Origin: Elusimicrobiota bacterium
GTDB taxonomy: Bacteria; Elusimicrobiota; Elusimicrobia; Elusimicrobiales; UBA9959
DNA length: 59,291 bases
Direction: 5' to 3'
Assembly (NCBI GenBank): GCA_027340875.1
Contig: DAIENX010000091.1
Location: 1-59,291 of the forward strand
The stretch's first letter is position 1. Each line of letters begins with the position of its first letter. Positions 19,701-25,700 of this stretch are shown piece by piece. A program made the position numbers.

Positions 19701-22700
19701 TGAAAGAGAAGCTGGGGAACATCTTCGTCGGTTACACCTACGACAGGAAGCCTGTCTACGCGCGCGACCTCAAGGCCAACGGGGCCATGGCCGCGCTGCT
19801 CAAGGACGCGATCATGCCCAACCTGGTGCAGACCACCGAGGGGACCCCTGCCATCATCCACGGCGGGCCTTTCGCCAACATCGCGCACGGCTGCAATTCC
19901 ATCATCGCCACCCGCATGGGCCTGAGCCTGTCCGACTACGTCGTCACCGAGGCCGGCTTCGCGTTCGAGCTGGGCGCCGAGAAGTTCCTGGACATCAAGT
20001 GCCGCTACGCCGGGCTCTGCCCGAGCGCGGCCGTGCTGGTGGCCACGGTGCGCGCGCTGAAATACCACGGCCACGTGCCGCTGAAGGAGCTGAACAACCC
20101 GGACCCGGCCGCCGTCAAGAAAGGCCTGGAGAACCTCGAGAAACACGTGGAGAACATGAAGCAGTTCGACCTGGTGCCGGTCGTGGCGCTGAACAGGTTC
20201 TCCTCCGACACCGAGGAGGAGATAGCCGTGATCAAGGCCAGGTGCGCCGAGCTCGGCGTGCCGGTGGCGGTGGCGGACGTCTGGGGCCGGGGCGGGGCGG
20301 GGGCCGTGGAGCTCGCCGAGCTCGTGGACAAGGCCGTGCAGAGCCGCGACCACTGCGGCTTCAAGCCGGTCTACGAGTGGGAGTGGCCGGTACAGAAGAA
20401 GATAGAGGCCATAGCCTCCAAGATGTACGGCGCCAGGCACATAGACTACACGCCCCGCGCGAAAAAGGACCTGGACAAGGTGAACAGCCTGGGCCTCGAC
20501 AAGCTGCCGGTCTGCATAGCCAAGACGCAGAAGTCGCTGTCGGATAACCCGGACCTGCTGGGGCGTCCGAAGGACTTCGTGGTTACCGTGCGGCAGATAG
20601 AGATAGCGGCCGGGGCCGGCTTCGTGATACCGATAACCGGCGACATCATGCGCATGCCGGGCCTGCCGGAGCACCCGGCGTCGGAGAACATAGACATAGA
20701 CGCCGAGGGGAATATCACCGGCCTGTTCTGAAGTCGGCAGGGTAAAAACAAAAGCCCGGGCGCTCCCGGGCTTTTGTTTTTGTTCCGGTCTTCTGCGTTC
20801 AGGCGGCCCGGGCGAAGAACTCCCGGGAGGCTTTCTCCCACTGCTCGTCGTTAAGACGCTCCAGTTCGCCTATATAGAGCTCACCGTCGCCCTGTCCTTC
20901 CTCCCCGCCGTCGCGGCCGGCAGCCGCGAGGAACTTGCGGAACAGCTCTATGTCGTCCTGGAAGAGCCCGACCGCGGCTTTGCCTATCCTCAGGGCCGGG
21001 GTGTCCGCCTCAAGGCTGTCGGAGTCTATGACGCATACCCAGTTGCCGGCGTACGGAGTCATGTCCAGCGCCCCGCAGTCCTCCTTGAGGGAGGAGTTGG
21101 TCCTGGTGACCTTGCCTCCGACCGGGGCAAGGAAGGAGATGCTCCTGTTCTTCTGGCGCACGCTGAACAGCGGCTGTCCCGCCTTGACCGTCATCCCGAC
21201 GTTGGGGAACTCGATGGCGCTGACCTTGCCTATCAGCTTCCTGGCGAAGTCGTCCATGCCGACCTTCACGGAGCCGTCCTGCGCCATCGCGGCCCAGCAG
21301 TGCCCCTTCGAGATGAAGACGCCTCCGGGTATGGTGAACTCCCGGGAGCTGACGCGGTCCGCGGCGGGCATGTGCACCACCTGTATCTGGGGCTTCAGCT
21401 GCTTCTGGATGCGGTCCTGCCTGCGTATCAGCGCCTTCTTGACGAAGGCCAGCAGCTCGCTTTCGGTGAAAGGCTTCTGTACGTAGTCCATCGCGCCGAA
21501 CTTCATGCATTCCACGGCCGTCTCCACCGTGGCGTAGCCGGTAATGATGACCACGTCGATATCCGGCCTGAGGTGCTTTACGGACTTCACCACGTCCACC
21601 CCGTCCATCTCCGGCATCTTCAGGTCGGTGAAGACGAAGTCGTAGTGATGGCTCTGGACCAGCCCCAGCGCCTCCTCGCCGGTCTGCACCGTGTCCACCG
21701 AGTAGCCGTCCATTACCAGTATCTTTCTGAAGCTGTCCAGCACCACTTCCTCGTCGTCCACGCACAGGATGCGCGCCGCCGGCGAGTCCACCTCCACCCG
21801 CTTGAGCGACCTGGCCTCGTGCGTGAAGTCCAGCTTCAGGCTGACGGAGAGCGCTTCCTCCCGCTCGCGGCGCTTCTTCTTCTCGACCAGCTTGCGTGTG
21901 AATTCCCGCACCCCCAGGTCCGCCAGTATGAACAGTATGACGGATACGAACAACAGGATTATCACCATACCAACCCTCCTTATACCGCTAGTTCGTCAAA
22001 ACTTCCCGCTGCTCCCGGCCAGCAGCCTCTGCAGGTCCCGCTCCAGGTCGGACGGGAGCAGCCGGTACATCCAGCCGGAGAAATACGGGTCCTTCTCCAG
22101 CAGCTCCGGCCCGGCCTCCGCTGCGGCGTTGCGCTCCAGCACCTTGCCGCTGACGGGGCACATGACGCCGTGCGCCATCCCGTCCGCGGACCGGATCTCG
22201 GCGCAGGAATTCCCCTGCGCTATCTCGCGTCCTGCTGGCAGCAGCGAGACGCCGGACACCTCGCCGAGGGAGCGCATGAAGAGGTCCGTAACCCCGGTCA
22301 GGACGGTCCCGGCGTCCTCCACCAGGGCCCAGCTGATATAGCCCATGCGGTAATAGCGCTGGGGGGGCGCCACGTGCACCAGGCAGGCCTGCGGCCCCGG
22401 CTCGCCGGAGGACGCCGGACCCAGCATGGCGCTCAGCCTCATCGTGCGGCGTATGACGGACAGGAGTTCGTCGGCCGTGAAAGGCTTCGGGATGAAGTCC
22501 ACCGCGCCGCAGGAGAGGGACTTCACGGTGTTCTCCAGCGTGGAGAAGCCCGTGGCCATCACCACCAGCGACGAAAGCTTGCGCCGGGCCGCTTCCTCGA
22601 GGAACTGGAAGCCGTCCAACTGCGGCATCATTATGTCGCAGACGACGATGCGGTAAGGGCGCAGCGAGAGCATGGCCAGCGCCGCGGCGCCGTTCTCCGC

Positions 22701-25700
22701 CATGTCAACGGACAGGCCGTCACCGGAACAGACCTTGGAGATGCCCTCCAGTATGACGGGTTCGTCGTCCACCACAAGTATGTCGCGCATTTCCTTCATG
22801 GCTTCACCGGTATCCGCACCGTGAACACGGTGCCTCGGCCCTCCTCGCTCTCCACTCCTATAGTGCCGTTGTGGTTGTCCAATATGCCCCAGATCACGGC
22901 CAGCCCGAGGCCGGTGCCTTTCTGGTCCTTGGTGGAATAGAAGGGCTCGAATATCCTGGCCAGGTCCTTTCCCGGTATGCCGCAGCCGGTGTCGCGCACC
23001 TTCACCTCCACGAATTCCATGGTGCCCGCGGCGTCCACGGCCTCCCAGCGCCGCCATTTGCAGCCTGGGCGGGTGCAGCCCTCAACCATGCCCTTGAAAG
23101 GGACCTCGAAAGCGTAGACGGCGGAGCCGCATTTCGGGCAGGTCGTTTTAGGAGCGATCAGGGAGGACGAGCATTCGGGGCACATGAAGGCAGCTCCGCT
23201 GCCGGCCTCGAACGGCAGCCCGCTGCCGGCTCGGTCCAGCCCGTAGACGGGGTCCAGGTGCAGGAAACCCTCCTCCGCGCCGCTGCGCACCTTGATCCTG
23301 ATCGACGGCATGCCGTCTATGCGGTATTCGCGGTCCAGCAGGTCGTGCCGTTTAGGGCACAGCGCTTTCTTGATCTGGGTCGTGCCTACCGGCGAGAGGC
23401 TCAGCTTGGAGGACGTTACGGTTATGACGCCGCCCGCCTGGCCTATAGCGTCCGCCGCGTTCACGAAAAGATTTATGAAGACCTGCTGTATCTGGTTGGA
23501 GTCTATGGTGACAGGCGGGATGTCCGGCGCGTATTCCTTGACCAACCGGACCTTGTTTATGGCCAGCTGGTTCTCCACCACGGCGGCCGCCAGATCTATC
23601 ACCCGGTGGATGTCTGCCTTCGTCCTGTTCGGCACGGATTGCCGCGCGAAGTCGAGCAGGCTTTTGACTATCTCCCTGCTGCGCATCGTTTCGCGCACTA
23701 TCACCTGCAGGTCCTTCTGCATCTCCGGCTGCCCGCCGGCGCGCTTCAGCAGGTAGCTGCTGTAGGTCAGCACTCCGGTCAGCGGGTTGTTGATCTCGTG
23801 CGCCACTCCGGCCGCCAGCCGGCCCAGCGAGGCCAGCTTGTCGGACTGGAACAGCTGCAGCCGTGCTTCCGAGAGTCTGTGCGTCATATTGTTGAAGGCC
23901 TCGGCCAGCATGCCCAGTTCGTCGTCGCGCGTGACCTTTATCATGTAACGCAGGTCCCCGTCGGCCACGCGGCGCGTCGCGGCCAGCAGCTCCTTTACCG
24001 GCGCGTCCACCCAGCGCTTCACGAACAGGCCTATTATCAGGCTGAGGGCCAGCACCGCGCCGCCCGCGAAGACCAGGATCTCCAGCTGGCTCTGCCGGAT
24101 GTCCTTGTCGACTTCGGTCAGCGGCATCGTCACGTCCAGCACTCCCAGCACCGCCTGCGACTTCGAGTGAACGTGACAGGCCGCCGTCCAGCAGGAGGGC
24201 ATGTTTTAGATCGGACTGATGATGCCGAGCGTGCGGGAGGCGTCGGGCCTGGCGCGGAATATTCTGGTGCGCTCCTTCATCTCGAGTCGCTTGAGCGGCT
24301 CGCCGTCGGAGTGGCAGATGTAGCAGCTCTCCGCCTTCTTGTCCACCATCCTGCCTATCTCGCCGCGGTCCGAGGAATAGATTATCTCGCCGGCCTTGTT
24401 CATCACGCGGATGCGCTGGATGCTGGGCTGGTTGCCCATACGCTGGATGCTCTGGCGTATCCTCTCCCGCTGGTTGAGGAGCATGTCGTACTCGGTGGCG
24501 GACTTGACCGCGTCGCTCAACTGGCTGGCGTGCCGCTCCACCTCGGCGAGCAGGTTCCGGCTGTCGGAGCGCGTGTTGAAGAAAGAGAATATCCCTATCG
24601 TCACCAGCGCGGTGACGCACGCTACCAGCGTAAGCTTGAAGCCGAGCTTTCTCATCATCATACGGTCATCGTCCGGCCGCCGCCGCGGTCCCCGGCCTGT
24701 CCGCCGGATAGCGCTTGTCCTGGTGGCAAGCCGCGAAGGCCGGCGGCGCGGCGAAACGTCCGTCCGCGTGGCAGGCTTCGCAGCCCAGCGAGGCGTGGAC
24801 CTCGCTGAGCTTCAGGCCGGTCCGCGAATGGTCGAAGCCCTTCTGCCAGCCGGGGTGGCAGGAGTCGCAGCCGGAGGCCGGGACCTTGAAGGCCTCCCCG
24901 GCGCCGTGGCAGGCGGCGCAGGCCAGCCGCCGGTGGAAGCGGTTCAGCGGCCAGCCGGAGGACTTGCCGTGCGCGAAGCTGTCTTCGGGCCTGGAGGCGT
25001 GGCACGCAGCGCACTTGGCCGCCGCGTGGCATCCGAAGCAGGCCTTATGCCTGGCCTGCGCCGGGGCCGCCTTCCTGACGGCGCCGCGTTCCGCGGCGTA
25101 AGCCGAGTGGCAGCTTTCGCAGGTCTCCTGGCGGTGACAGTCGACGCATTTAAGGCCGAAGACCCGCGAGTGGTCCGCGTGGAAGAAAGTGACGTAGCGT
25201 CCTTTTTCGGAGGCCGTTTCGTATACCAGCCGGTCCGGGACCCGGACCTTGCCGGGGCCGCTTTTTCCGGTCCCCCGCGGTTCCGCTCGGCCTTTGTCCT
25301 CATGGCAGTCGCCGCAGGCCGCGGCCTTGTCCCACCTCAGGTGGCATTCCATGCAGAGGCGATGGCGCGCGCCGCGCAGGTCCGGCTTGCCGAGGTCCTC
25401 GCGCGCCCGCGACTTGGAGTGGCATTGATCGCACTTCATCGCGGTGCCGGGCCTGCCGTAATGGTGGCAGTCGCGGCAGCCGCCGCCCATGGCGGCCATC
25501 TCGGCGTGAGCCTTGTGCGGGAACGTCACGGGCCCGTACGGGCCTCCTTTCCCGCCGAAGCGGATCTCGGCGGGGCTCTTGCCGGCCGGGTAGCTGGAGG
25601 CGCCGGCCGAACGCGGGCAGCCGCGCAGGGAAGGGTCCAGCCTGGTAGGGGTGTCGGAAACGTGGCAGAAGGCGCAGGGCGCGTCGGCGGGGTTCATCCC

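Follow-up and report, generated by a model that had tools for sequence, protein, structure and literature searches.

Lysine-less GcvH-like response regulators encoded with a kinase and a NrfD-type quinone module

Two adjacent genes of an Elusimicrobiota bacterium encode receiver domains joined to a domain that resembles GcvH, the H protein of glycine cleavage, but lacks the lysine that carries lipoate. They lie in contig DAIENX010000091.1, of which we analyzed positions 1 to 59,291 (the window, 59,291 nt). We asked what a response regulator with such an output acts on, and we compared the locus with its relatives in other genomes.

A six-gene operon with a haem-type sensor kinase

The two regulators, RR-A (g00567) and RR-B (g00566), belong to a tight operon of six genes, all on the minus strand, which encode an Fe-S protein, an NrfD subunit, a 12-haem cytochrome, a kinase, RR-A, and RR-B. 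Adjacent genes of the operon overlap by 4 nt or are separated by 3 to 27 nt, and the start of RR-A (MKEM...) shares 4 nt with the kinase stop. The features are as follows:

27014..27916, minus strand: periplasmic 4Fe-4S protein, HmcB/HybA-like, with a Tat signal (RRAFLK) and a C-terminal membrane anchor (hydrophobic residues 268-289)
25776..27017, minus strand: NrfD-family integral membrane subunit, HybB/HmcC-like, quinone-interacting (Pfam NrfD, 1.4e-20)
24666..25772, minus strand: periplasmic 12-haem cytochrome c with c3/c7-type repeats (12 CXXCH)
22796..24661, minus strand: sensor histidine kinase, 621 aa, split by a TAA in the window (Pfam on the C-terminal part, and orthologues)
21996..22799, minus strand: RR-A, soluble, receiver plus lysine-less GcvH fold, 267 aa (Pfam, alignment, AF2, Foldseek)
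20799..21968, minus strand: RR-B, N-terminal membrane helix, receiver and lysine-less GcvH fold, 389 aa (Pfam, alignment, AF2), ending in a helical extension of ~60 aa
20749..20768, minus strand: terminator-like hairpin and T-run just past RR-B, the likely operon end (a consensus match only; 4 such sites were found in the region, with 3.9 expected by chance)

The operon is flanked by genes for a Na+/H+ exchanger and a formate-tetrahydrofolate ligase. The latter, which is convergent, is the sole one-carbon neighbour in the window, and it is absent from the gene clusters common to many of the 80 cassette loci described below.

The Fe-S protein matches Pfam Fer4_11 (1.8e-21) and, in NCBIfam, HmcB (320.8 bits, cut-off 420) and HybA (256.5 bits, cut-off 263); the NrfD subunit matches HybB (340 bits, cut-off 450) and HmcC (270 bits, cut-off 550), and the cytochrome matches Pfam Cytochrom_CIII (3.1e-16) and Cytochrome_C7 (7e-13). 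These three neighbours (the cytochrome with 12 CXXCH, NrfD, and 4Fe-4S) are as named in a preliminary description of this DNA, whose range of 20799-24202 encloses both regulators and also takes in the C-terminal 468 residues of the kinase.

The same description listed g00569 (24206-24661) as a gene with one CXXCH of its own. We rejected a separate one-CXXCH cytochrome: g00569 lies in frame behind a TAA at 24206-24208 and is the N-terminal sensor half of the kinase, and the stop occupies the position of a Tyr that is conserved in orthologues, including an intact 630-aa orthologue (65% identity over 613 aa) from genome G024. In contigs from all four runs (one study; two of the runs possibly the source), position 24206 is G instead of T. 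Because the TAA reads TAC (Tyr) in these contigs, we regard the kinase as a whole protein of 621 aa. It consists of TM1, a periplasmic domain with CXXCH and CX4CH, TM2, HAMP, HisKA, and a HATPase with a Cys-rich insert. Both haem-c-type motifs of the periplasmic domain are invariant among 60 full-length orthologues.

Complete receivers joined to GcvH-like domains without the lipoyl-lysine

Judged by their residues, both regulators carry complete, phosphorylatable receivers (Pfam Response_reg, 1.7e-31 for RR-B and 1.7e-25 for RR-A). The acidic pocket, phospho-acceptor Asp, Thr/Ser, Lys, and aromatic switch residue of PF00072 are all present. Residues D12, E13, D55, T83, and K105 of RR-A are kept in 121/121 sequences, with F or Y at position 102, and D71, D72, D115, T143, Y162, and K165 of RR-B are invariant in 76 sequences. 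The phospho-acceptor residues, previously left unchecked, are intact in both families.

The second domain matches Pfam GCV_H (PF01597; 7.1e-19 in RR-A, 2.9e-16 in RR-B), with scores of 68.4 and 59.9 bits against a gathering threshold of 22.2, and PDB entry 1onl is matched by sequence (E 7.7e-19). An AF2 model of RR-A (pLDDT 90.3, pTM 0.87) retrieved GcvH 1onl_A in Foldseek (E 8e-11, TM 0.81, rmsd 1.8 Å), and GcvH chains overall gave TM 0.81-0.84 and rmsd 1.5-2.0 Å. The RR-B model had a pLDDT of 82.8.

The host genome encodes one genuine GcvH, with the motif ...VESVKSAF.... At the lipoyl-lysine column, 121 RR-A-type sequences have Asp (91), Ala (13), Ser (5), Gly (5), Glu (2), Asn (2), Gln (1), or Lys (1). 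In a joint alignment, Lys occupies this column in 14/14 true GcvH rows and in none of the 25 A-type or 40 B-type rows. The RR-B of the window has a Lys one column off (RQKN), a feature common to only 5/18 orthologues. Neither regulator has the lysine that a functional GcvH (TIGR00527 / NF002270) carries at the ESVK hairpin tip; RR-A scores below both equivalog cut-offs (56.7 against 115.85 and 72.9 against 117), and GcvH models are absent from the best 25 NCBIfam matches of RR-B. With these residues, the GcvH fold of both regulators is incapable of lipoylation at the canonical site.

The family comprises 614 clusters at E<=1e-10, and the best 120 all contain PF01597 and PF00072. The analysis thus bears out what had been claimed of the two genes, namely a receiver fused to a GcvH-like domain, loss of the lysine (the earlier counts matched), and membership in a large family.

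A conserved cassette and a receiver-less relative

The six genes travel together across phyla. We found at least 562 cassette loci in species-representative genomes, all of them metagenome bins; copies with 41-79% identity occur in Ignavibacteria/Bacteroidota, Gemmatimonadota, Elusimicrobiota, Gammaproteobacteria, and others, and the cassette was found in 2/25 genomes of the window's genus. A tblastn analysis of the best 80 loci, many of which stop at a contig edge, detected the C-terminal part of the kinase in 77 and the sensor part in 71; NrfD was present in 63, the Fe-S protein in 61, and the cytochrome in 46. An RR-B orthologue with 55% identity or more occurs in 62 loci, and 18 have a paralogue at 43-50%. 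Across phyla, identity is 56-71% for RR-B and, in the main (NrfD1-type) form of the cassette, 67-79% for the NrfD subunit. The linkage outlasts rearrangement: G024 has the order kinase, RR-A, Fe-S, NrfD, cytochrome, RR-B. The 80 loci contain no conserved DNA-binding gene. A MacroD-type gene lies 3' of RR-B in Ignavibacteria-type loci only.

The GcvH-like domain of RR-B occurs mostly as a receiver-less, membrane-tethered protein, which is new here. A search with RR-B residues 200-389 retrieved 1074 clusters at E<=1e-10; among the best 150, 86 consist of a membrane helix and a GcvH-like domain without a receiver, a receiver is present in 20, and 12 combine a periplasmic PBP-like domain with a membrane helix. 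On a tree with true GcvH as outgroup, the B family forms a clade (SH-aLRT 98), within which 23/24 receiver-fused rows fall into one group (support 80) nested among receiver-less rows.

We also sampled loci independently of the regulators, using 201 genomes of one phylum, 38 of which contain a B-type match. At 18/20 receiver-less loci from this sample, Fe-S and NrfD genes lie directly beside the GcvH-like gene. The usual order in this sister cassette is B, Fe-S, NrfD, a second diverged GcvH-like protein, kinase, sigma-54 regulator, and M54 peptidase, and the sensor motif of the kinase is identical. Like the receiver-less companions, RR-B has an N-terminal membrane helix, a GcvH fold without the lysine, a helical extension at the C terminus, and a gene next to an Fe-S/NrfD pair; its inserted receiver is additional. 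The GcvH-like domain therefore appears to be primarily a membrane-tethered partner of the quinone module, with receivers or a periplasmic binding domain fused later. Its preliminary description as a regulator output holds for both genes of the window and is incomplete, since most relatives are receiver-less proteins encoded beside Fe-S/NrfD.

Candidate targets and comparison with known systems

Because the regulators have no DNA-binding part and share a six-gene unit with the membrane module and a haem-type sensor, they probably control that module directly rather than via gene expression. Action on the Fe-S/NrfD/cytochrome module is our best guess at the target, because the linkage holds across phyla, through rearrangement, and in receiver-less relatives. 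Of an output that works by protein contact rather than by binding DNA, as first proposed, the GcvH fold and the lack of a DNA-binding domain stand, and the contact itself is a prediction. Of the two targets suggested with it, the respiratory module is favoured by the conserved linkage; a lipoyl- or aminomethyl-handling enzyme is disfavoured, because one of the regulators is anchored in the membrane and the fold goes with Fe-S/NrfD pairs, not with lipoate enzymes.

Gene neighbourhood, fusion pattern, and residue conservation suggest, with about an even chance of being right, that the GcvH fold serves the quinone module as an accessory on the cytoplasmic side and that the fused receivers give the kinase direct control. 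The GcvH-like proteins would act on the HybAB/HmcBC-like module by contact, without carrying a cofactor, and in the window's cassette a receiver would have been inserted into each. The kinase would sense the redox state of the periplasmic haem chain and phosphorylate RR-A and RR-B; phosphorylation would alter the seating of the GcvH-like domains on the module or on each other, and electron flow between the quinone pool and the periplasmic cytochromes would be tuned with no need for transcription. The kinase of the sister cassette is of the same type but signals to the sigma-54 activator instead, and the GcvH-like proteins there have no receivers. Several points count against the accessory reading: NrfD-family subunits show little on the cytoplasmic side on which to dock, the adjacent Fe-S/NrfD pair is missing at 2/20 receiver-less loci, cotranscription with the module would suit an autoregulated transcription circuit just as well, provided that there is an unlinked DNA-binding partner, and RR-A has conserved Cys and His residues beyond the need of a pure docking domain.

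These residues raise a different, rather unlikely explanation, in which the GcvH-like domain of RR-A is a thiol- or metal-based redox element and more than a docking surface. C199/C214 with H210, C145, and the C-terminal CSSDR tail found in part of the family are candidates for a disulfide switch or a Zn or Fe-S site, through which RR-A would respond to a cytoplasmic redox input as well as to phosphorylation, or would hand on reducing equivalents. C199 is conserved in all 121 RR-A-type sequences, H210 in 119, C145 in 113, C214 in 106, and the tail Cys in 57, and the receiver residues C24 (117/121) and C54 (119/121) are conserved too. The AF2 model has a hairpin of strands 198-204 and 209-213, which places residue 199 opposite 214 at the base of what was once the lipoyl hairpin. 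In the sister cassette, four invariant Cys precede the diverged GcvH-like part of the receiver-less counterpart, and in one singleton protein three lysine-less GcvH-like domains are joined to an FAD oxidase, two CCG domains, and an Fe-S domain. However, this CCG fusion is known from a single metagenome protein, the RR-A of the window has neither C145 nor the tail Cys, C214 is replaced by Ser or Ala in 15/121 sequences, and the B type, which is anchored in the membrane, lacks a comparable group of Cys. A combined proposal is tentative and rates below the accessory role itself: lipoate-less GcvH-fold proteins may be unrecognised cytoplasmic subunits of widespread HybAB/HmcBC-type quinone modules, and in this cassette a haem-sensing kinase may phosphorylate them directly, forming a two-component system that gates a respiratory complex post-translationally, without transcription, with the Cys pair of RR-A, at the site of the lost lipoyl arm, as a second, thiol-based redox input.

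It is less probable still that the regulators are phosphate sinks or connectors, with GcvH-like domains that merely tune phosphate flow or localisation while the kinase has its actual output in an unlinked DNA-binding regulator of operon transcription. The homologous kinase of the sister cassette signals to an adjacently encoded sigma-54 activator, and the Desulfovibrio Hmc operon, in the available part of one report, ends with the regulator genes rrf1 and rrf2 (10.1101/2023.11.02.564894). However, no DNA-binding gene is conserved among the 80 loci, the RR-B output is more conserved (56-71% identity across phyla) than a sink needs, and the same GcvH-like domain is found without a receiver beside the same module. 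A role as decoys for GcvH partners (T-, P-, and L-protein, lipoate ligases), which would couple glycine cleavage or lipoate metabolism to respiratory state, is very improbable: the fold is very near that of true GcvH (TM 0.81-0.84, rmsd 1.5-2.0 Å), the genome has a genuine GcvH, and GcvH partners occur in nearly every host, as would suit a mobile cassette, but RR-B and most of its relatives are tethered to the membrane, 18/20 independently sampled loci have the fold together with an Fe-S/NrfD pair, and the conserved cassettes of sampled loci, the cassette genes alone being searched, hold no lipoate or glycine-cleavage gene.

We found no response-regulator paper that describes the GcvH fold as an output, and nothing in print on the six-gene cassette. 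If control of the quinone module by these proteins is correct, it would add an output class to the response-regulator census and give a function to more than 1000 unannotated GcvH-like protein clusters. Phosphorylation, not gene expression, would let bacteria adjust a quinone-linked electron-transfer module within seconds, and it would be explained why published "orphan" Fe-S/HybB/cytochrome modules appeared without conserved partners. Being compact, self-contained, and mobile across phyla, the cassette should be testable in a laboratory host.

The domains share their fold and clear sequence homology with GcvH (PF01597, TIGR00527; Pfam 60-68 bits; 1onl E 7.7e-19; TM 0.81-0.84). Unlike GcvH, they lack the lipoyl-lysine, score below the NCBIfam equivalog cut-offs, are fused to receivers, and occupy their own branches on trees, apart from true GcvH; RR-B adds a membrane helix and a C-terminal extension, and the regulators are encoded with a respiratory module, not with gcvT/gcvP. 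LbpA of the sHdr sulfur-oxidation system (PMC6067878) and GcvH-L of the SirTM/macrodomain operon (PMC11490716) are likewise H-protein folds that serve in a redox or stress system to which they were recruited, and their genes accompany those of their partner enzymes. As described in the available portions of those papers, both are lipoylated on the canonical lysine, GcvH-L being also ADP-ribosylated on Asp27, whereas the proteins studied here lack that lysine and are signalling proteins, outside both groups. The window's operon contains no sHdr, SirTM, Zn-macro, or LplA2 partner genes.

The membrane and periplasmic components correspond to a published three-gene module of a tail-anchored Tat Fe-S protein, a HybB-like quinol oxidase, and a multihaem cytochrome c, and to the same three parts of HmcABC and HybAB; their best NCBIfam matches are HmcB, HybA, HybB, and HmcC. 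The flanking genes of the three-gene module are reported, in the available part of that study, as not conserved (10.1101/2023.11.02.564894), whereas here the module is always accompanied by a haem-type kinase and GcvH-like proteins. It is distinct from the Hmc complex (HmcABCDEF), as the cytochrome has 12 haems and is not the 16-haem HmcA, the HmcA, HmcB, and HmcC models all score below their NCBIfam cut-offs, and the operon has no counterpart of HmcD, the cytochrome b HmcE, or the CCG protein HmcF. It is also distinct from the HybAB module of hydrogenase-2, with HybA and HybB below their cut-offs and no NiFe hydrogenase genes in the operon.

CheY, CpdR, and RssB are response regulators that act by protein contact. 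Like these, RR-A and RR-B have a complete receiver, lack an output that binds DNA or acts as an enzyme, and are likely to act other than through transcription; they differ in the GcvH fold of the output, in the membrane anchor of one of the pair, and in their presumed target, a respiratory module.

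The operon and its sensor kinase

The two response regulators of the window, the soluble RR-A (g00567) and the membrane-anchored RR-B (g00566), belong to a cassette of six genes. The preliminary description had assigned a receiver and a GcvH-like domain to both proteins, and our Pfam searches recovered Response_reg and GCV_H on each of them, with E-values of 1.7e-25 and 7.1e-19 for RR-A and of 1.7e-31 and 2.9e-16 for RR-B. The genes are as follows.

20799-21968, minus strand: RR-B (g00566), 389 aa
21996-22799, minus strand: RR-A (g00567), 267 aa; starts MKEM... and overlaps the upstream stop by 4 nt
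Third minus-strand frame of the range first described: C-terminal 468 residues of a histidine kinase (Pfam HAMP, HisKA and HATPase_c)
Upstream of the kinase, same strand: cytochrome with 12 CXXCH motifs
Upstream of the kinase, same strand: NrfD-family membrane protein (Pfam)
Upstream of the kinase, same strand: 4Fe-4S protein that has a Tat signal and is anchored in the membrane by its C-terminus

Consecutive genes of the cassette overlap by 4 nt or are separated by 3 to 27 nt, and a terminator-like hairpin, whose consensus is matched at chance frequency, lies 3' of RR-B. From these junctions and the hairpin we read the six genes as one operon; a promoter scan of the region returned 0 sites. 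The flanking genes encode a B12-binding radical SAM protein (16979-18367), a convergent formate-tetrahydrofolate ligase (19058-20731), and a Na+/H+ exchanger (28124-29332), and none of these three families is present in the gene clusters common to many of 80 related loci.

A separate one-haem cytochrome had been proposed at 24206-24661, but this 151-aa frame is the N-terminal part of the kinase. It is in frame with the kinase and separated from it by TAA and one codon. When the two parts were joined with an X, they showed 65% identity over 613 residues to the intact 630-aa kinase of G024, another genome of the window's genus that carries the cassette, and the G024 kinase has Tyr where the window kinase has the stop. 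We found the stretch around the stop in four metagenome runs of one study, two of which may be the source of the window. The contigs of all four runs have G instead of T at position 24206, and so codon 24206-24208 (minus strand) is TAC, encoding Tyr. An assembly error or a minor variant accounts for the TAA, and therefore also for the division into two gene calls (g00568 and g00569). The contigs of the four runs also rule out that the kinase is a pseudogene.

The whole kinase has 621 aa and consists of a first transmembrane helix, a periplasmic domain of ~150 aa, a second transmembrane helix, HAMP, HisKA, and HATPase. The sensor region contains CXXCH and a second motif, PIYNE.SCW.A.CHAH (CX4CH), and the Cys and His residues of both are invariant in 60 full-length orthologues; CX4CH motifs are able to bind haem c. 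The ATP-binding domain carries a Cys-rich insert (CPKRH, CP.C, CP.CGS, C..C.W), conserved in the 60 orthologues, that looks like zinc ribbons. In the window this insert of ~130 aa spans approximately 22982-23374 (minus strand), and Pfam gives only a weak match to TackOD1.

Intact receivers and a GcvH-like domain without the lipoyl-lysine

The state of the phospho-acceptor residues was a gap named in the preliminary description, and both receivers proved to have complete, invariant sets. D12, E13, D55, T83, and K105 are invariant in 121 sequences of the RR-A type, in which position 102 is F or Y, and D71, D72, D115, T143, Y162, and K165 are invariant in 76 sequences of the RR-B type.

The C-terminal half of RR-A has the fold of GcvH. 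Thermus GcvH (1onl) was matched with an E-value of 7.7e-19, and its lipoyl-lysine aligned, with a one-residue insertion, with the Asp of the SADG turn of RR-A. An AF2 model of RR-A (pLDDT 90.3, pTM 0.87; linker 129-139 disordered) superposed in its C-terminal half on GcvH chains with a TM of 0.81-0.84 and an rmsd of 1.5-2.0 A (Foldseek). Lipoylation requires Lys at the hairpin tip, and the GcvH of the window's genome has it (...VESVKSAF...). In the 121 RR-A-type sequences, the lysine column is occupied by D (91), A (13), S (5), G (5), E (2), N (2), Q (1), and K (1). The claimed loss of the lipoyl-lysine was borne out by a joint alignment in which Lys occupied this column in 14/14 true GcvH sequences but in 0/25 A-type (RR-A-like) and 0/40 B-type (RR-B-like) rows (0/18 B1, 0/10 B2, and 0/12 B3). 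RR-B of the window has a Lys one column earlier than the lipoyl position, as do 5/18 orthologues; this residue is not conserved. RR-A scored 56.7 and 72.9 bits against the NCBIfam GcvH equivalog models, for which the cut-offs are 115.85 and 117. Given these scores and the absence of the lysine, RR-A and RR-B are members of the Pfam superfamily rather than functional GcvH. An ESM Atlas look-up of the RR-A domain returned ordinary GcvH clusters only, with scores of 0.82-0.83 that are under the level that counts, and a search for short proteins in which a relative of the RR-A-type domain stands alone gave 12 candidates, none of which scored.

Several Cys and His residues are conserved in the A type: C199 in 121/121 sequences, H210 in 119/121, C145 in 113/121, C214 in 106/121, and a tail Cys, mostly in CSSDR plus one residue, in 57/121. 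The receiver adds C24 (117/121) and C54 (119/121). In the AF2 model, residue 199 lies opposite residue 214 where the former lipoyl hairpin has its base, and the conserved set suggests a disulfide or a metal site. RR-A of the window keeps C199, H210, and C214 and is without C145 and the tail Cys. It is among just 2/121 family members that retain only C199 and C214 of the four Cys positions in the GcvH domain.

Spread of the cassette and its receiver-less relatives

At E<=1e-10, 614 clusters are homologous to RR-A. Both domains are present in all of the best 120, some of which carry JGI names like "CheY-like/glycine cleavage H". In species-representative genomes we confirmed at least 562 loci, and the best 80 of these, all from metagenome bins, were used for taxonomy (from record titles) and synteny. 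They were labelled Ignavibacteria/Bacteroidota (43), Gammaproteobacteria (21; Woeseiaceae, Lysobacterales, Chromatiales, and others), Gemmatimonadota (7), Elusimicrobiota (4), Kiritimatiellota (1), and Victivallales (1), and the phylum was not given for 3.

Table. Window proteins found by tblastn in the best 80 loci, many of which stop at a contig end
RR-A: 80/80 loci, 41-54% identity
Kinase, C-terminal part: 77/80, 54-69% identity
Kinase, sensor part: 71/80
NrfD: 63/80, 67-79% identity in the main form
Fe-S protein: 61/80
Cytochrome: 46/80, 34-47% identity

RR-B orthologues (56-71% identity) were found in 62 of the best 80 loci and a paralogue, B2 (43-50%), in 18. The commonest order is Fe-S, NrfD, cytochrome, kinase, RR-A, RR-B on a single strand. 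In gammaproteobacterial loci the series begins with B2 and a small cytochrome of the c3 type, followed by Fe-S, NrfD (~32% identical), kinase, and RR-A, and a B1 copy sometimes comes last; G024 has kinase, RR-A, Fe-S, NrfD, cytochrome, RR-B. De novo clustering of all reading frames in the 80 loci revealed no additional conserved gene and no DNA-binding protein. In the window's genus, only the window genome and G024 carry the cassette among 25 genomes searched, the window genome included. In a sample of the order, GCV_H matched exactly once in 29/30 other genomes and not at all in the remaining one, as against three matches in the window's genome. Identity is high across phyla, presence is patchy, and the genes stay linked when their order changes, all of which points to a mobile cassette that would work autonomously.

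In one related locus (L072:10195-10713), RR-B is immediately followed on the same strand by a MacroD-type macrodomain gene (PF01661, 5e-48), and 28 other loci share this arrangement. These 29/80 loci are all of the Ignavibacteria/Bacteroidota type, and the gene is absent from the window locus. Its position may reflect lineage synteny only.

The GcvH-like domain also occurs without a receiver. In Ignavibacteria-type loci, an adjoining antiparallel module encodes a kinase, a Cys-rich protein of 242 aa, NrfD', Fe-S', and a ~223-aa protein that corresponds to RR-B without its receiver, with an N-terminal membrane helix, GCV_H, and a like C-terminal extension. In a profile comparison, the 242-aa protein matched RR-A weakly in the GcvH register (probability 19%, E 0.0012), which makes it a probable but unproven diverged GcvH-like protein. 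A search of 1.84 billion representatives with RR-B residues 200-389 returned 3335 clusters at E<=1e-3, 1074 at E<=1e-10, and 14 at E<=1e-30.

Table. Architectures in the best 150 of the 1074 clusters at E<=1e-10
Membrane helix and GcvH-like domain, without receiver: 86
Receiver present (9 full-length with helix, 11 N-truncated): 20
Signal peptide, PBP-like periplasmic domain, membrane helix, and GcvH-like domain: 12
Several GcvH-like domains: 3
Fragments or soluble: 16
Unsorted: 13

In a quick tree rooted with 15 true GcvH sequences, many forks are open because only 127 columns were used. The lysine-less forms all fall on one side (SH-aLRT 94), with the B family as one clade (98) and the A type as a separate one (99). 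Within the receiver-less rows, a single nested group (80) takes in 23 of the 24 B rows that have a fused receiver.

Because loci picked through RR-A are biased, we took a second sample, 201 genomes of the phylum to which one Ignavibacteria-type bin belongs. A profile built from B proteins without receiver matched in 38/201 at E<=1e-25. Among 20 loci fetched around receiver-less matches, Fe-S and NrfD genes immediately adjoin the GcvH-like gene in 18, and one of the two exceptions stops at a contig edge. The commonest order is B, Fe-S, NrfD, Cys-rich protein, kinase, sigma-54 response regulator, M54 peptidase. This sister cassette (L153-L171) is highly stereotyped, and its final gene always encodes an archaemetzincin-like M54 peptidase. 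The layout recurs at a metagenome locus that encodes the PBP-fused form (L120:7902-9581): its gene precedes those for Fe-S, NrfD, a second GcvH-like protein tethered to the membrane, a kinase with haem motifs, a sigma-54 regulator, and an M54 peptidase, and the sensor motifs of that kinase are again CXXCH and ...NEPSC.TA.CHAH. The Fe-S/NrfD association occurs under three wirings (bare membrane helix, periplasmic domain, and inserted receiver); above all, the lysine-less GcvH fold accompanies an Fe-S/NrfD pair.

P0134 (1391 aa) combines three lysine-less GcvH-like domains with FAD_binding_4/FAD-oxidase_C, a 4Fe-4S domain, and two CCG domains; it is a singleton cluster from a single metagenome bin and so a lead only.

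Proposed mechanism and comparison with known systems

We are highly confident of the descriptive account, which covers domains and residues, an unbroken kinase, the operon and how far it has spread, and a fold tightly associated with Fe-S/NrfD. The mechanism that we infer stands at about even chances: the GcvH-like proteins would sit on the cytoplasmic face of the module and work through contact, under control of the kinase by phosphorylation. The kinase probably senses the periplasmic haem chain. In the six-gene cassette it would govern the GcvH-like proteins directly via phosphorylation; kinases of this type would, in the sister cassette, work via the sigma-54 activator instead. A complex prediction of NrfD with the GcvH-like domain of RR-A (140-267) and the GcvH-like and C-terminal part of RR-B (186-389), the scored partner, gave 0.02 against a mark of 0.32, a value that speaks neither for nor against the proposed contact; the membrane helix and receiver of RR-B were excluded to prevent a false pass through helix packing.

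Full-text literature searches for the receiver plus GcvH-like architecture, and for NrfD with GcvH, found nothing on this combination of domains. Every NCBIfam equivalog score of the cassette proteins is under its cut-off. GlpC-superfamily proteins such as HmcF carry CCG domains. The membrane part of the cassette is closest to HmcABC, HybAB, and the three-gene module of a preprint whose authors saw no conserved genes flanking that module (10.1101/2023.11.02.564894). The same preprint describes HmcF as the cytoplasmic Hmc subunit, an iron-sulphur protein of the GlpC superfamily, and a figure legend names rrf1 and rrf2 as regulators in the Hmc operon (10.1101/2023.11.02.564894). The output domain is closest to GcvH. 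GcvH-L of Firmicutes is ADP-ribosylated on Asp27, a modification that a macrodomain removes (PMC11490716). LbpA and GcvH-L are other recruited H-proteins, yet both are lipoylated (PMC6067878, PMC11490716), whereas the domains of RR-A and RR-B are without the lysine.
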